From NCBI RefSeq assembly GCF_013122565.1, contig NZ_CP053258.1: a stretch of DNA of 64,000 nucleotides, one strand, 5' to 3'. The notes beneath the pieces were generated by a model. That model searched no databases and was not told the DNA's origin. It worked only from the letters and a program-made list of their open reading frames with translations. Shown here piece by piece: positions 9,833 to 61,640 of the stretch. This DNA comes from Escherichia coli. Lineage in GTDB: Bacteria > Pseudomonadota > Gammaproteobacteria > Enterobacterales > Enterobacteriaceae. The first letter of the stretch is position 1, and the number at the start of each line of letters is the position of its first letter. The translations under genes and the position numbers were made by a program.

Positions 9833-10078
9833 CTACGTAATCAACCTGATTTGCCGAATCCCGACCATCGGCGATGATAGCCCCCGTAATGCGTGGTCCT
9901 TATTTCCGATAAGTTTACTTGAGTCTTTAGCTTCCCATTTCAGCCCACTCTCCCCTGTGTGGGCTTTTTTCATTGGTCTGACCCGTCCTGAATAGCCAAA
10001 CAATGGCAATGTTCCACTTTGCAGGGATGATAATAAGGGGATCTGATTCAGAAGAGTTTTGAAAAGTTGGACCGCCAT
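9833..10078 (-). CDS. yahM: small hypothetical protein (81 aa from internal Met; yahM position)
   Basis: ORF track 9833..10108; assignment by position and length only; contains the yahN terminator and overlaps a tRNA-like element, so coding status is doubtful. Confidence 0.4.
   Translation of the reverse strand: MAVQLFKTLLNQIPLLSSLQSGTLPLFGYSGRVRPMKKAHTGESGLKWEAKDSSKLIGNKDHALRGLSSPMVGIRQIRLIT
9943..9970 (+). terminator. rho-independent terminator downstream of yahN
   Basis: Stem gcccac/gtgggc with 10-nt loop followed by TTTTTT. Confidence 0.6.
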
Positions 10079-10148
10079 CGAGGCCTCGAACCCCGTACCA
10101 TACAACAATCCTGGTTGTCGTCTGCTCTTCCTGATGAGCTAATGGCGG
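10068..10148 (-). other. tRNA-like element (possible tRNA pseudogene or relic attachment site)
   Basis: Minus strand: acceptor stem CCGCCAT/ATGGCGG (7 bp), D-arm GCTC-ATCAGGAA-GAGC, T-arm CGGGG-TTCGAGG-CCTCG, encoded CCA; anticodon region atypical (ACAAC-CAGGATT-GTTGT, A at position 33) with extra nucleotides. Confidence 0.5.
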
Positions 10149-43732: not shown

Positions 43733-43808
43733 TGGTGCCGATAAGAGGAGTCGAACCTCCGACCTTCGCATTACGAATGCGCTGCTCTACCAACTGAGCT
43801 ATATCGGC
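43733..43808 (-). tRNA. thrW: tRNA-Thr (anticodon CGU)
   Basis: Minus strand GCCGATATAGCTCAGTTGGTAGAGCAGCGCATTCGTAATGCGAAGGTCGGAGGTTCGACTCCTCTTATCGGCACCA; full cloverleaf, anticodon loop TTCGTAA, encoded CCA. Confidence 0.92.
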
Positions 43809-50186: not shown

Positions 50187-51644
50187 GTGTCTGAACTGTC
50201 TCAATTATCTCCACAGCCGCTGTGGGATATTTTTGCCAAAATCTGTTCTATTCCTCACCCGTCCTATCATGAAGAGCAACTCGCTGAATACATTGTTGGT
50301 TGGGCAAAAGAGAAAGGTTTCCATGTCGAACGCGATCAGGTAGGTAATATCCTGATTCGTAAACCTGCTACCGCAGGTATGGAAAATCGTAAACCGGTCG
50401 TCTTACAGGCCCACCTCGATATGGTGCCGCAGAAAAATAACGACACCGTGCATGACTTCACGAAAGATCCTATCCAGCCTTATATTGATGGCGAATGGGT
50501 TAAAGCGCGCGGCACCACGCTGGGTGCAGATAACGGCATTGGTATGGCGTCTGCGCTGGCGGTTCTGGCTGACGAAAACGTGGTTCACGGCCCGCTGGAA
50601 GTGCTGCTGACCATGACCGAAGAAGCCGGTATGGACGGTGCGTTCGGCTTACAGAGCAACTGGTTGCAGGCTGATATTCTGATTAACACCGACTCCGAAG
50701 AAGAAGGTGAAATCTACATGGGTTGTGCGGGGGGTATCGACTTCACCTCCAACCTGCATTTAGATCGTGAAGCGGTTCCAGCTGGTTTTGAAACCTTCAA
50801 GTTAACCTTAAAAGGTCTGAAAGGCGGTCACTCCGGCGGTGAAATCCACGTTGGCCTGGGTAATGCCAACAAACTGCTGGTGCGCTTCCTGGCGGGTCAT
50901 GCAGAAGAACTGGACCTGCGTCTTATTGATTTCAACGGCGGCACACTGCGTAACGCCATCCCGCGTGAAGCCTTTGCGACCATTGCTGTCGCAGCTGATA
51001 AAGTCGACGCCCTGAAATCTCTGGTGAATACTTATCAGGAGATCCTGAAAAACGAGCTGGCAGAGAAAGAGAAAAATCTGGCCTTGTTGCTGGACTCTGT
51101 AGCGAACGATAAAGCTGCCCTGATTGCGAAATCTCGCGATACCTTTATTCGTCTGCTGAACGCCACCCCGAACGGTGTGATCCGCAATTCCGACGTGGCA
51201 AAAGGTGTGGTCGAAACCTCCCTGAACGTCGGTGTTGTAACCATGACCGACAACAACGTAGAAATTCACTGTCTGATCCGTTCTCTGATCGACAGCGGTA
51301 AAGACTACGTGGTGAGCATGCTTGATTCGCTGGGTAAACTGGCTGGCGCGAAAACCGAAGCGAAAGGCGCATATCCTGGCTGGCAGCCGGACGCTAATTC
51401 TCCGGTGATGCATCTGGTACGTGAAACCTATCAGCGCCTGTTCAACAAGACGCCGAACATCCAGATTATCCACGCGGGCCTGGAATGTGGTCTGTTCAAA
51501 AAACCGTATCCGGAAATGGACATGGTTTCTATCGGGCCAACAATCACCGGTCCACACTCTCCGGATGAGCAAGTTCACATCGAAAGCGTAGGTCACTACT
51601 GGACACTGCTGACTGAACTGCTGAAAGAAATTCCGGCGAAGTAA
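50187..51644 (+). CDS. pepD: cytosol nonspecific dipeptidase PepD
   Basis: 485-aa GTG-start ORF MSELSQLSPQPLWDIFAKICSIPHPSYHEEQLAEYIVGWAKEKGF... Confidence 0.92.
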   Translation: MSELSQLSPQPLWDIFAKICSIPHPSYHEEQLAEYIVGWAKEKGFHVERDQVGNILIRKPATAGMENRKPVVLQAHLDMVPQKNNDTVHDFTKDPIQPYIDGEWVKARGTTLGADNGIGMASALAVLADENVVHGPLEVLLTMTEEAGMDGAFGLQSNWLQADILINTDSEEEGEIYMGCAGGIDFTSNLHLDREAVPAGFETFKLTLKGLKGGHSGGEIHVGLGNANKLLVRFLAGHAEELDLRLIDFNGGTLRNAIPREAFATIAVAADKVDALKSLVNTYQEILKNELAEKEKNLALLLDSVANDKAALIAKSRDTFIRLLNATPNGVIRNSDVAKGVVETSLNVGVVTMTDNNVEIHCLIRSLIDSGKDYVVSMLDSLGKLAGAKTEAKGAYPGWQPDANSPVMHLVRETYQRLFNKTPNIQIIHAGLECGLFKKPYPEMDMVSIGPTITGPHSPDEQVHIESVGHYWTLLTELLKEIPAK

Positions 51645-51700
51645 TTATTTGATTTGCTGCCGGATGGCGTTCAATCACCTTCCGGCAGTTTCATCCTTCA

Positions 51701-52315
51701 TTATCCTTCGATAAAAGCCATCCCTGTAAATGTCCGTCGCGGGTTGCCACGTTCAATCTGGTGATGGAACATTCGCCGCTGCGATTTCAGCACCGCGCTA
51801 TTCTCCTGTTGCTGTTGTTCCAGCTTCCAGGCAATCAGCAATCGCGCCAGCCGTTTGTTAGCATGCTGGCTGCGCTCTGACTGAACCTTCACGCTAATAC
51901 CGGATGCCAGATGCGTGGCACGTACCGCCGAGTCGGTTTTATTGACATGTTGACCGCCCGGCCCCGACGAACGCAGCGTCTCATACCGGATCGCATCGGA
52001 TTGCCCCTGCTCATCAGCGGTAAAACGCCCAATGCCCAGAAACCAGTTTTTACGCCCGTGATGTGGGCGATACGGGCTCGGGCAAATCCACTGAATAGTG
52101 CCACACCAGCTTTCGCTTAACGCCCATGCGTTGTCGCCATCCAGAGAAATCAGCGCCGAACGCAGCGTGTCAGAGTAGCGGCCTGTTTCTGTTTCCAGCA
52201 CCGTTACCGCGACGTCTTGTCGGGCAGTTTCTTTAATTAGCCTGTCCAGCGCCTTTTTCACTGCGAGACAACATTCTTCCGGCCCCTGCGCTGAGGAGAG
52301 TTGTAGCAAGATCAT
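51701..52315 (-). CDS. prfH: release-factor-like protein PrfH (GGQ motif, no codon-recognition domain), apparently intact
   Basis: Start at [21 protein letters not shown] (204 aa) overlapping rtcB stop in ATGA; GGQ motif in [11 protein letters not shown]. Confidence 0.8.
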
Positions 52316-53463
52316 CCTTTTTTCCCTCCACTGTTTTTGAGCGTTAGCACCGGACGCAGTCGCGCGACAGGAATAATTAACCCAGCCTGCACCAGACATT
52401 GCACCACGCTTTCAGCCGATTTATAAGCTTGTGGCGCTTCTTCAAAGATGAGTTGTTTATCGCGACAAATTACCCGGCTGCCAAGTTCAGTACGCGAGAG
52501 TTGCGTCACCGTGTATTTCGCTGCCAGACGCCCTTTACAATCGGTGCGCCCCCATTTACGCCCAGCCCCATGCGCCAGCGAATGCAATGTTTCCTCACTC
52601 CTGACGGGCTGAACCAGCCAGGAGTAATCACCGCGTGAACCGGGAATAACCACCAGACCACAGTCATCAGGCGTGGCACCTTTACGATGTAAGACCCCTT
52701 GTTGATCACCGATTCGACACGCGCTAACAAAGTTATGCGCCACATCCAGAACCGGACTTCCGGTGGCCTTAACCTGTTGCATTATGCGCAAAGCGATCAG
52801 CTGGCGATTAATACGCGCAAACGCCAGCGCATCGTCATGTTCCGCAATATAACGTAGCGCGTCGTCACTGCCTTCAGGCAAACCATGATGCGAAAACGAG
52901 GCAATATGCCGCTGTAAAATAGACTGCCCTAAACCACGCGAGCCGCTATGAACCAACAGTTGCAGATGCTGCGCATCCAGACCTGCCAGTGCAAACAGTT
53001 CAGCGTTGATGATTTGATCAACTTGTTGCAGTTCAGCGAAATGATTGCCGCCACCGATAGAGCCAAGCGAGCTGCGCCACGGATGCTGTGCAAATGCTGA
53101 CGGCAGGTTTTCCTCCAGCCAGCTTTCTTCAGCAACGTCATCCAAAGCTGATAATCGCTTTTCAAACTTATCGGCGTTGTATTTGCGAGCGAGAATATCT
53201 GTTTGCCATAGCGCCATGCCGCAGCCGATATCATTGCCGACCAGTGCCGGGTAAAAACGACCAACTGAGAAGAACGCTGCGCCAATCGGGTAGCCGCGTC
53301 CGGGATGTAAATCTGGCATCCCCACTACGCGCTGCATGTTGGGTAAATTTGCCGTGGTGTGTAATTGTTGGATCGCTAAACTCTCGATCCACAGGTCATC
53401 AGATGCGATGGTAAATACCGCATCGGATAAGGGACGAATATATTTGCCCATGTACCATTCCAT
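52312..53463 (-). CDS. RtcB-family RNA ligase paralogue (RtcB2), apparently intact
   Basis: 383-aa ORF with RtcB-like His/Cys-rich segments (...[16 protein letters not shown]..., ...[10 protein letters not shown]..., ...AHGAGRK...); translationally coupled to prfH. Confidence 0.75.
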
Positions 53464-53464
53464 T

Positions 53465-53600
53465 TATACTCGTCATACTTCAAGTTGCATGTACTGCGAC
53501 TGCGTTCGTTCACCCCAGTCACTTACTTTAGTAAGCTCCTGGCGATTCACTCGCTTGTCACCTTCCTGCAACTCGAATTATTTAGAGTATATAAATATTA
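53465..53600. repeat. ERIC/IRU-like intergenic repeat
   Basis: Minus strand contains GTGAATCgCCAGGAGCTTACtAAAGTAAGTGACTGGGGTGAaCGAACGCAGTCGCAGTACATGCAACTTGAAGTATGACGAGTATA, close to the ERIC consensus as I remember it. Confidence 0.55.
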
Positions 53601-53768
53601 AAAATCAGGAAATGGCAGACGAATCCAGGGCAAGAAAAAAGAATTAATCCTGGAAAGGTCTGCAAAGAGTCATTGATAAAGGATTTGTCATGATTTACCT
53701 CCTTGCAGTTTGTGGAATCAGAAAACGCGCACATACTAGGCGGGCGTTATTTTCATTGCAAGCTGGAT

Positions 53769-54221
53769 TTAATGTTGCGGTTTATATCGCATATAAAAAT
53801 TAGTAAACCACGCACCCCGGCATTCAACGCGCTGCTGCTTAACTGTCTGAAAACCATAACGTTCAAAAAAGGGTTTTGCGGTTATGCTGGCGTCCACCGT
53901 AAGTTCGGATTCAGACTTAATCCAAGGTTTTAACAAAGCACTGGCAACCCCACGGCGGGTGTATTCAGGGTCAACAAATAACATATCGATATAATGTTCA
54001 ATGCGGGAAATAAAACCAACCGGTTGTGCATTAATGACTGCAACCCGCACTTGTGATTTCGCGAGTTTCTCCTTCCAGCGAGATTCGTCAATCTGCGCCC
54101 AGACTGCAATTTGTTGTGGTGAATAATGCTCACTGGCTGTCATCGTAACCGCTCTAATGAAAATAGCGCATAGTTGCTGAAAATCGCCAGGCTGATAGTT
54201 TCTTATTTGTATGTTATTCAT
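53769..54221 (-). CDS. yafP: GNAT-family acetyltransferase YafP
   Basis: 150-aa [28 protein letters not shown]...; start overlaps dinB stop (ATGA). Confidence 0.85.
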
Positions 54222-55273
54222 AATCCCAGCACCAGTTGTCTTTCCATTTGAGGGTCAAGCAACGTCACATGCAGCCCCACCAGTCGCACACCGCGCCCGC
54301 CGCGGCGTTCATCCCAGGTTTTACGCGCGGTGGCGATTAGATCAGCTTTATTCAGCCGCGGCCAGACGTGCTCCTGGGTGGTTTGCTGAAAATCGTCGAA
54401 CTTTAATTTCACCCCCTGGCGAGCAATCAGTAAATCAGGTTTTACCTTTGCCAGACGGCGTTCAAGTTCCGGATACAGCCGCTCGATAATCGCTTCACAT
54501 TCAGACCAGTGATGAATATCTTCCGCCATCGTGCGTTCCACGCCGACGGATTTTCGCAACCGTTCGCTGTTAACATCGCGTTCGTCAATCCCCTGACTAC
54601 GCTCCCACAAAATGCGGCCAAATTTGCCAAAACGTTTAAGCAACGTCACCAGATCACACTTTTGTACATCACCGCAGGTCCGCAGCCCCATCGCTTCCAG
54701 TTTTGCCGCCGAGACTTTGCCGACGCCGGGGATTTTTGCCAGTGGTAAGGTTTGTAAAAATGCCGGAACTTCTGCCGGCGTAATCACAAACTGGCCGTTG
54801 GGTTTATTCATGTCGGAGGCGATTTTGGCGAGAAACTTTACTGGTGCCACGCCCGCAGACGCCGTCAGTTGCAGCTCGCTGAAAATCGTCTGGCGGATTT
54901 CCTGGGCGATGAGGGTCGCAGAACCGTGGCAATGGACGCTATCGGTGACATCGAGATAAGCCTCATCCAGTGACAACGGTTCAATACGCGAGGTGTAACG
55001 CGAGAAGATTTCACGGATATGATTTGAGGCTTCTTTGTAGGCGTCAAAGCGCCCCGGAAGCAAGGTGAGATGTGGGCATAATTTGAGCGCCATCCCAGTA
55101 GGCATAGCGCTACGTACGCCAAATTTACGCGCGGGATAATTGGCGGTGCTGATCACCCCCCGACGTTCGCGGCTGCCGCCAATAGCAATAGGGATATCGC
55201 GCAGGGCGGGATTGTCGCGCATCTCCACTGCGGCGAAAAAGCAGTCCATATCCACATGAATGATTTTACGCAT
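54218..55273 (-). CDS. dinB: DNA polymerase IV (Y-family)
   Basis: 351-aa [61 protein letters not shown]... Confidence 0.95.
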
Positions 55274-55343: not shown

Positions 55344-56234
55344 TTAACGCGTTCGCTGCGAAAGCACCTGCTGCTTATCCAGCTTTTGCACCAGTGGCTG
55401 CACCACTTTATCCCCATGCTGACCAAAGTATTGATACAGCGTATCGGACGCACTTTTGGTCAGCACCATAATCTCAATACGCCGATTGCCCGCACTTTGC
55501 GGATTTTTCGCGTCCAGCAGCATCTGGTCCGCCATTGCGCTTACCTGCATCACTTTATCTTCCGGCATTCCTGCCTCTTCCAACACCCGACGAGCCGAAA
55601 GCGCGCGGTCACCCGAAAGGTTCCAGTTGTTGTAGATATTGTTTTTGTAAGCCATCGCATCGGTATGCCCGGTAATAATAATTTTGTTATCGAGCGAGTC
55701 GAACACTGGCGCGAGCTCCACCAGCAAAGTTTTAAAGAACGGCATAATCTGCGCGCTGCCGCGTTCGAACATATTGCGGTTCTGGTCGTCTTTAATCAGC
55801 ACGCGTAATCCCTGCGGGACAATCTCCATCTCCAGATTCGCTTCCATATGCGCATCACGGGCAATGGTGTTGATACTGGTTGCCAGCTCGCCAAGCTCGG
55901 TGGCGGATTTCTTCTTCAGCAGCGCCGTATTCTCGTTGACGTCGCGCGCTTTTTTCTCCGTCTCTTCCGGCACCGCCACGGTGGCAGGTTTTGGCGGATG
56001 AGACGGGCTGATTTTATTTAACGGCGACAACCCGCCACCATTGAAAATCGACTGCCCGTGCAGCGCGGCGATAATGCTTTCACGCTCGGATTTACTGACG
56101 CTGTTGACAATCAACTTTATTGTCGTCACCAAAGGGGCCGAGCGTATTTCCGAGGTTTCCGCCCGCTTTACCCTGGACGCGATGCCCGGCAAACAGATGG
56201 CGATTGACGCCGACCTTAACGCCGGGTTGATCAA
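55344..56234 (-). pseudogene. lafU: lafU fragment (MotB-like C-terminal OmpA-type domain), Flag-2 remnant
   Basis: ORF C-terminal region has MotB/OmpA-like peptidoglycan-binding domain (...IIITGHTDAMAYKNNIYNNWNLSGDRALSARRVLEEAGMPEDKV...NRRIEIMVL); N-terminal TM part absent; upstream 190 nt overlap the fhiA ORF on the other strand, so the true 5' boundary is uncertain. Confidence 0.6.
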
Positions 56235-61501: not shown

Positions 61502-61640
61502 GGTCGGATGCGGCGTGAACGCATTATTCGGCCTTCGGTTCGCGTACAGATTTGTAGGCATGATAAGACGCGTCAGCGTCGCATCAGGCATCAGCGCACA
61601 AATGCTGGATGCGGCGTAAACGCCTTATCCGGCCTACGCC
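61502..61640. repeat. BIME (three REP units) between yafJ and gmhA
   Basis: ggtcggatgcggcgtgaacgc..., gtaggcatgataagacgcgtcagcgtcgcatcaggca, tgctggatgcggcgtaaacgccttatccggcctacgcc. Confidence 0.75.

Follow-up and report, generated by a model that had tools for sequence, protein, structure and literature searches.

We describe here a locus in a stretch of 64,000 nucleotides from Escherichia coli (contig NZ_CP053258.1 of assembly GCF_013122565.1; the whole stretch is called the window below, and all positions refer to it). The window carries what is very probably an intact copy of a known two-gene ribosome rescue-and-repair operon, rtcB2-prfH, together with a short upstream leader orthologous to the PA5471.1 leader of Pseudomonas aeruginosa. 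The original prediction had called a full-length, translationally coupled rtcB-prfH pair, and both parts of this description hold. Two open reading frames (ORFs) lie on the minus strand, 52312..53463 (383 amino acids) and 51701..52315 (204 amino acids), neither with an internal stop, and the rtcB TGA (52314..52312) overlaps the prfH ATG (52315..52313), reading ...AAAAGGATGATC... across the junction. The identical overlap of 4 nucleotides is found at Salmonella, Citrobacter, and Klebsiella loci. The features of the pair are as follows.

52312..53451, minus strand: rtcB2, gene of a release-factor-H-coupled RtcB RNA ligase, 379 amino acids from the conserved ATG.
51701..52315, minus strand: prfH, gene of peptide chain release factor H, 204 amino acids from the ATG inside the ATGA; GGQ at residues 120-122.
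52312..52315, minus strand: ATGA tetranucleotide shared by the stop of rtcB2 and the ATG of prfH, a translational coupling signal, read from the sequence.
53452..53463, minus strand: four codons (MEWY) that lengthen the rtcB2 ORF in frame at its upstream end and are probably left untranslated; the ATG here is ACG in strain wlxctx60, and family profiles begin at residue 5.

The product of rtcB2 scores 638.4 bits against the NCBIfam equivalog NF007153 (“RNA ligase RtcB family protein”; cutoff 407) and 623.7 bits against TIGR03073 (release_rtcB; cutoff 271.8). Translation most likely begins at the second ATG (53451), which gives 379 amino acids, and not at the ATG at 53463 where the gene was first placed. 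We prefer this start because the Prokaryotic Genome Annotation Pipeline annotates rtcB2 genes of 1140 nucleotides in relatives, because the NF007153 profile aligns from residue 5 of the longer ORF, because the upstream ATG has become ACG in strain wlxctx60, and because the published numbering of the catalytic His294 fits this start only. Archaeal, bacterial, and human RtcB structures match the protein with their active-site motifs aligned to its own (NDIGCG, GGNHF, VHSGSRG, VAHNF, AHGAGR). With 53451 as the start, the protein has D74, C77, N136/H137, H168, H239, and H294, none of which varies among 14 orthologues drawn from 13 genera; which RtcB residue binds which metal is known from established structural work on the family. 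Two kinds of damage that had been named as grounds for doubting the pair, loss of the metal-binding His and Cys residues and a frameshift, are not found: every one of these residues is kept, and the alignments to other alleles are gapless.

RtcB1 (of rtcBA-rtcR) and the archaeal and human tRNA-splicing RtcBs belong to the same PF01139 fold family, have the same active-site motifs, and share with RtcB2 a chemistry in which a 3'-phosphate or 2',3'-cyclic phosphate is joined to a 5'-OH via His-GMP. RtcB2 differs from all of these in sequence (approximately 30% identity over partial alignments), in its shorter length (379 amino acids), and in its coupling to prfH. The substrates of RtcB2 and RtcB1 do not overlap, RtcB2 acting on the cleaved 30S subunit and not on tRNA (PMC9304027).

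The second protein, PrfH, reaches 326.5 bits against TIGR03072 (release_prfH; cutoff 166.65), and falls far below the cutoffs of the models for release factors RF1 and RF2 and for ArfB. It is identical at 199 of 204 positions (97.5%) to the E. coli “Peptide chain release factor H” whose structure on the damaged ribosome has been solved (PDB 7SA4, chain 8). The five substitutions (reference to window: R20K, A30T, T31A, E104G, A175V) lie outside the GGQ motif and outside all the contact residues given in PMC9304027 for the A1493 phosphate, h18/S12, C1914, and C1054. All of these contacts are kept (A9, G11, P12, R52, S53, R83, H85, H86, R88, K89, N90, Q122, R181, H184, R189), and so is the GGQ peptidyl-hydrolase motif that had been noticed in a short release-factor homologue. 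The further statement that this homologue lacks a codon-recognition domain is inexact; the missing part is the N-terminal domain 1 of release factors and not the decoding domain. Residues 7-190 of PrfH align to RF2 residues ~116-303, i.e., domains 2, 3, and part of 4, and published work describes a protein without domain 1 in which the domain 2/4 homologue is retained and repurposed for rRNA recognition (PMC1586002, PMC9304027).

PrfH has in common with RF1/RF2 and ArfB/ICT1 the GGQ peptidyl-hydrolase domain, and with RF1/RF2 also the homologues of domains 2 and 4. Unlike RF1/RF2 it has neither domain 1 nor the capacity to read stop codons; the SPF position of RF2 is SPY in PrfH, and the structure shows contact with rRNA, not mRNA. 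The window protein is collinear with 7SA4 chain 8 over residues 1-204, so that the conserved C-terminal tail found in ArfB and in the Capnocytophaga-type PrfH subfamily is absent and the protein falls in the tail-less subfamily (both subfamilies are defined in PMC12829566).

The closest characterised system is the RtcB2-PrfH pair of E. coli ATCC 25922 (Tian et al. 2022, PMC9304027; Maviza et al. 2022, PMC9223846; PDB 7SA4), which has the same pepD-yafP/dinB locus, gene order, and ATGA junction. Alignment to these proteins, the check proposed with the original prediction, gives 97.5% identity for PrfH with the contact residues kept and approximately 95% for RtcB2 with H294 and the metal ligands kept; the window allele differs by five substitutions in PrfH and ~16-20 in RtcB2. 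Rescue of stalled ribosomes followed by rRNA religation, which had been cited as a proposal, is by now experimentally established for the ATCC 25922 proteins (PMC9304027, PMC9223846, PMC13166195). PrfH frees the peptide only from ribosomes that carry the A1493/G1494 cut, which it recognises in a manner explained by a 2.55-Å structure; the pair protects cells in vivo from colicin E3 and E3-like toxins (same three sources). RtcB2 religates the cleaved 16S rRNA in the 30S subunit, not tRNA, and mutation of H294 abolishes its function, the H294N variant losing protection (PMC9304027).

From the 95-97.5% identity and the conserved residues, we infer the same function for the window proteins. By analogy to the steps established for ATCC 25922, colicin E3 or a CdiA-type ribotoxin would cut 16S rRNA between A1493 and G1494 and the ribosome would stall; PrfH would enter the A site, its remodelled domain 2/4 recognising the cleaved 3'-terminal A1493 phosphate; its GGQ motif would hydrolyse the peptidyl-tRNA on the cleaved ribosome; and after subunit dissociation RtcB2 would reseal the 16S rRNA in the 30S subunit via a His294-GMP intermediate. 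A different possibility is that RtcB2 in this strain is mainly a regulator, like P. aeruginosa ArmZ, which binds the repressor MexZ, and not an rRNA ligase. ArmZ is indeed its orthologue (61% identity over 375 residues in strain PA7), and it is described as an anti-repressor acting through its C-terminal helix. This anti-repressor role, however, is described as specific to P. aeruginosa; an E. coli protein approximately 95% identical to ours religates cleaved 16S rRNA and loses protection on H294N exchange (PMC9304027), all ligase residues are kept here, and no MexZ/MexXY partner is seen in the window. We consider a mainly regulatory RtcB2 extremely unlikely.

The allele appears to be maintained. 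Alignments of rtcB2 and prfH to the alleles of two other strains are gapless, without indels or stops, at nucleotide identities of 94-95% (rtcB2) and 95-98% (prfH). The ratios of nonsynonymous to synonymous substitution rates (dN/dS) against these two alleles are 0.13-0.16 for rtcB2 and 0.03-0.08 for prfH, values that indicate purifying selection on both genes and a divergent allele that, on this measure, is clearly maintained. The family models, the kept residues, the gapless alleles, and the selection together support the expectation that the strain probably holds a functional copy. An intact pair is ordinary in E. coli, present in about half of the complete genomes: in 2,709 of 5,426, at least 80% of positions 51600-53700 is covered at one place, and the majority of the remaining genomes have deletion forms in which 41-51% of the same interval is covered. 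The best full-length match of the locus among the 5,426 genomes is 96.0% identical.

The earlier statement that both genes are remnants in K-12 is accurate. In MG1655, ykfJ and prfH are annotated as pseudogenes at the same locus, and the segment corresponding to window positions 52225..53244 (~1.0 kb) is missing, a deletion described by Baranov et al. (PMC1586002) and Tian et al. (PMC9304027). The bulk of rtcB2 is lost with it, together with the ATGA junction and the ~30 codons that open prfH; K-12 retains the promoter, leader ORF, and intergenic repeat described below, the first ~69 rtcB2 codons, and the 3' five-sixths of prfH.

The locus is the E. coli pepD/prfH/yafP/dinB site, and its flanking DNA matches E. 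coli genomes, K-12 among them, at 97-98.6% identity. An origin in an Escherichia other than E. coli, raised by the approximately 95% identity of the locus, is rejected on this ground, the flanks being less like E. whittamii and the sampled Escherichia sp. By these comparisons, the window is an E. coli-type genome carrying a divergent rtcB2-prfH allele. We also observe that identity to other alleles is lower within rtcB2-prfH (~94-95%) than in the flanking pepD and frsA (97-99%), and that the pattern of identity to strain 1105 looks mosaic (prfH 97.7%, rtcB2 94.1%).

Upstream of rtcB2, between yafP and an enterobacterial repetitive intergenic consensus (ERIC) element, lie a putative promoter, a Shine-Dalgarno (SD) sequence, and a short leader ORF that starts 240 nucleotides upstream of rtcB2. 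The leader features, including the arms of four helices (P0 to P3), are the following.

53733..53761, minus strand: candidate sigma-70-like promoter TTGCAA-17 nt-TAGTAT, beginning 8 nucleotides after the yafP stop; identified by its match to the consensus.
53697..53704, minus strand: AAGGAGGT, a perfect SD sequence of the leader ORF, 5 nucleotides before its ATG.
53644..53691, minus strand: leader ORF of 15 codons plus stop (MTNPLSMTLCRPFQD), holding the 5' arm of P1 (GCAGAC, 53658-53663) and the 5' arm of P2 (CCAGG, 53649-53653).
53615-53620, minus strand: GTCTGC, 3' arm of P1, pairing with the Cys-Arg codons GCAGAC (53663-53658).
53608-53615, minus strand: CCATTTCC, 5' arm of P3, directly after the 3' arm of P1; its partner is the GGAATGG before the rtcB2 ATG.
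53469..53592, minus strand: ERIC element, an intergenic repeat unit in the loop between the P3 arms, identified by a sub-threshold match to V_AS5, a match to the ERIC2 primer, and allelic polymorphism.
53455..53461, minus strand: GGAATGG, the only SD-like element before rtcB2 and the 3' arm of P3; conserved across groups.
53699-53708 with 53660-53669, minus strand: candidate helix P0, CTGCAAGGAG with CTCTTTGCAG, from minimum-free-energy folds; it includes the leader SD.

Four E. coli strains, K-12 among them, show no difference in the leader stretch, and its organisation recurs well outside the species. We surveyed rtcB2 loci from 80 species using a fixed rule: an SD sequence and an ATG opening an ORF of 8-20 codons within 450 nucleotides upstream of rtcB2. 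Such an ORF is found in 79 of 80 species, compared to 0/80 for the reverse complement and 2/80 for shuffled sequences; at the 80th locus it was found by eye. The ORFs are 13-17 codons long, 78 of them have ...(L/I)C(R/G)... in common, and in 73 of these 78 the Cys lies five codons before the stop. A TTGCNN-(16-18 nt)-TANNNT element precedes the leader ATG by 38-55 nucleotides in 74 of 79 loci, with a spacer of 17 in 69 of the 74. The window promoter scores 8/12 to consensus, and a consensus scan of the leader at 9/12 or better finds no promoter; the case for it comes from its conservation across species. In Rfam, no described family covers the leader, the only match being a sub-threshold, ERIC-like one to V_AS5. 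Another ORF on the leader strand, 53582..53734 (50 amino acids), was rejected: it has no SD sequence, and in K-12 and wlxctx60 a poly-T tract of different length throws it out of frame.

Judging by sequence, the E. coli leader ORF and PA5471.1 of P. aeruginosa are orthologues. In strain PA7 the family member is PA5471.1 itself: the ORF ATGATTCAGTTC... (MIQFSTLCRLRLA) lies 254 nucleotides upstream of the armZ orthologue, and it fits the published PA5471.1 in Q3, F4, the amber change at nucleotide 7, and the F4L change at nucleotide 12. The whole P. aeruginosa operon PA5471.1-armZ-PA5470 is orthologous to ours, with a GCAAAGGAGG-type SD sequence, ...TLCR... codons, and a GCAGRC/GYCUGC helix. According to the work of Morita et al. 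(2006 and 2009), as reviewed in PMC3516279 and PMC12057347, armZ (PA5471) encodes an RtcB-like protein, PA5470 is prfH, and the PA5471.1 leader couples their expression to ribosome stalling. There are differences: the leader ORF has 13 codons in P. aeruginosa and 15 here; the distance from leader to gene is ~250 nucleotides in P. aeruginosa, whereas the 240 nucleotides here are reached only through the ERIC element (115 nucleotides in ERIC-less E. coli). ArmZ has gained its MexZ anti-repressor role in P. aeruginosa, and stall-dependent attenuation is a demonstrated property of the P. aeruginosa leader that we would extend to E. coli.

Support for the leader helices was computed on a MAFFT alignment of 41 distinct leaders. 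P1, formed by six pairs, is 98.8% paired in the 41 leaders, compared to 18-49% for slid controls. Compensatory changes occur at three of the six pairs (AU is replaced by GC in 7 sequences, GC by AU in 16, and CG by UA in 2), and RNAalifold independently predicts the same six pairs. The inner helix P2 (CCAGG:CCTGG; 70% paired) and P3 (76% paired, with a compensatory CG to UA change in six Providencia sequences) are less strongly supported than P1. In the predicted fold P3 sequesters the SD-like GGAATGG. As an observation on this element, Enterobacterales, Pseudomonas, and betaproteobacteria (survey loci L008-L087) all keep GGA(A/T)TGG 5-7 nucleotides ahead of the ATG of rtcB2, a conservation exceeding the need of a weak SD sequence; Providencia has GAGTTAAT in its place, with a matching change in the partner segment.

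In minimum-free-energy folds the leader SD region pairs with CTCTTTGCAG, forming P0, and P3 is extended into the 3' arm of P1, so that P1 competes with both. Both arms of P0 are invariant, and the helix is predicted from folding. The predicted competition among P1, P0, and P3 has the four-segment topology of classical attenuators. Enforcing P1 costs ~2.7 kcal/mol on average in the folding model.

The leader may be read as a switch. The operon would be transcribed from a promoter of its own, and the 3' half of the 15-codon leader ORF would provide the 5' arm of P1; failure to translate through the leader would, by orthology with PA5471.1, switch the RNA and turn on rtcB2-prfH. If the leader works as in P. 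aeruginosa, the signal that induces the repair operon would come from the impaired or damaged ribosomes themselves. Ribosomes cleaved by E3 are reported to stall at start codons (PMC13166195), which would fit an untranslated leader turning the operon on. On balance we think it likely, though with clear reservations, that rtcB2-prfH in E. coli, and in every RtcB2-PrfH-bearing proteobacterium sampled, stands under a PA5471.1-type leader switch that reads the state of translating ribosomes.

Several points weigh against this interpretation. A consensus scan of the leader finds no canonical intrinsic terminator. With a leader ribosome footprint in place, equilibrium folding does not open the rtcB2 ribosome-binding site (RBS), and enforcing P1 raises its unpaired fraction only slightly (0.38 vs 0.35, p = 0.009). 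The ERIC element would sit between the leader switch and the rtcB2 RBS, and its insertion might alter or blunt the regulation. Against a functional reading of the gene pair itself stands the divergence of the window allele, which departs from the RtcB2 common in E. coli at ~4-5% of residues and ~5% of bases.

An ermC-type model, in which stalling of a ribosome on the leader would expose the RBS of rtcB2, was tried by partition-function folding of 60 leaders with a footprint of 28-30 nucleotides over the Cys or the stop codon; RBS accessibility is 0.34 vs 0.35, and we reject the model as the sole mechanism. In the E. coli leaders the effect of enforcing P1 is larger than it is overall (accessibility 0.45 vs 0.29). 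We take the P1-enforcement result as weak support and not as decisive.

These folding results bear on a second explanation, namely that in enterobacteria the 15-codon ORF and its helix are not a stall sensor but a constitutive 5'-UTR (untranslated region) structure, a small-protein gene, or a relic kept for the sake of mRNA stability. The at most weak coupling of ribosome position to RBS accessibility agrees with it, as do the missing terminator and the fact that the literature searched holds no experimental data from enterobacteria. However, the leader is orthologous to PA5471.1, not merely similar to it, and the role of PA5471.1 was shown genetically. The N-terminal peptide varies while the ORF, the SD sequence, the spacing from Cys to stop, and P1 are kept, a pattern typical of regulatory leaders. 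Moreover, K-12 ykfJ, which keeps the window-type leader, is reported, second-hand in PMC3516279, to be inducible by the translation-perturbing analogue 4-azaleucine. We regard the non-sensor explanation as unlikely, and continue to favour the leader switch.

The ERIC-like repeat that had been placed immediately upstream of rtcB (53465-53600) is real, and we locate it at 53469-53592. The ERIC2 primer matches 53507-53528 at 21 of 22 positions (one mismatch; 0 matches expected by chance), with a single copy in the window. The whole of the Rfam model V_AS5 aligns to 53469-53592 with 43 bits, which is under its gathering score (96); this model presumably stands for an ERIC copy. The predicted fold has a long hairpin over the element, in keeping with ERIC, an imperfect palindrome of ~127 bp with a conserved core. 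A query containing the element hits a median of five places per E. coli genome, with extra places in nearly every genome, and plasmid matches to this query are confined to 53465-53501.

The element is polymorphic at this spot within Escherichia. It is full length here and in K-12, strain 1105, and locus L009; wlxctx60 and L011 have a short form with an internal deletion; and it is absent from L008 and from E. whittamii (L010). These states at one place in the leader, the P3 loop, suggest a hot spot for insertion or, alternatively, one old insertion followed by repeated losses. A short ERIC-like element is also seen at the equivalent leader position upstream of rtcB2 in Klebsiella spallanzanii (L006/L018).

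The position of the element between the regulatory helix and the RBS could be taken to mean that in this strain the pair, although its sequence is intact, is silent or in decay, having been recently inactivated as in K-12 but with no lesion visible as yet, e.g., by ERIC uncoupling the leader from rtcB2. The unusual divergence of the allele (96% identity or less to any complete genome) points the same way, as does the deletion of the locus in about half of the complete E. coli genomes, which implies that selection for it is intermittent. Yet dN/dS is well under 1 in both genes, indels and stops are absent, and all catalytic residues are retained. The ERIC-bearing arrangement is common to strains with intact genes, such as strain 1105, and in the fold the ERIC hairpin draws the P3 arms together, not apart. 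Recent inactivation seems very improbable to us, and a maintained, functional operon remains our reading.

Downstream of the pair, prfH is convergent with pepD (50187-51644, plus strand), and the 56-nucleotide gap between them holds an inverted repeat, read from the sequence:

51657..51688, no strand assigned: inverted repeat CTGCCGGA...TCCGGCAG, 8 bp.

This repeat may be a terminator hairpin shared by prfH and pepD. The terminator scan does not flag 51657-51688 because the loop is 16 nucleotides long.

On the other side, yafP and dinB lie upstream on the rtcB2 strand. We note that in this region (53769-55273, minus strand) dinB directly overlaps yafP (54218-54221). The yafN-yafO toxin-antitoxin pair, which lies between dinB and yafP in K-12 and strain 1105, is absent here, in wlxctx60, and in one Klebsiella locus. 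An ORF for lafU, of the Flag-2 lateral flagellar cluster (55344-56234, minus strand), adjoins dinB; the flhA/lfhA gene next to it carries the annotation of a truncated pseudogene in relatives. Elsewhere in the window, tRNA-Thr(CGT), thrW, is found at 43733-43808 by both ARAGORN and the Rfam tRNA model. ARAGORN also calls a tRNA-Ser(GGA) at 10068-10148 (minus strand), where the Rfam tRNA model is silent at its gathering threshold; this call is probably a false positive. The nucleoid-associated RNA naRNA4 (CssrE), derived from repetitive extragenic palindromic elements, matches Rfam at 61557-61634 (minus strand) with 74.5 bits, above the gathering score.

As a gene pair, rtcB2-prfH is a system already known and common, and a textbook-ready example of damage-reversal defence against ribotoxins. 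It is usable for phenotype prediction, which is not new in itself: the strain should tolerate cleavage of its 16S rRNA by colicin E3 or CdiA-type toxins better than K-12. The part of more interest is the leader. The E. coli RtcB2-PrfH literature searched does not mention a leader, ArmZ, or PA5471, and leaves the regulation of the operon in E. coli unaddressed; our search found no relevant work linking an ArmZ/PA5471-type leader with RtcB2-prfH, although the 2009 paper defining PA5471.1 lay outside it and may already note the enterobacterial leader. The leader offers a concrete, testable handle on the induction of the repair operon. If the proposed switch is correct, ribosome damage or stalling would switch on the genes for its own repair. 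Two literatures without mutual citation in the papers searched, on the antibiotic induction of ArmZ/MexXY in Pseudomonas and on RtcB2-PrfH colicin defence in E. coli, would then be joined, and the induction of ArmZ by aminoglycosides would be a co-opted ribosome-repair response.

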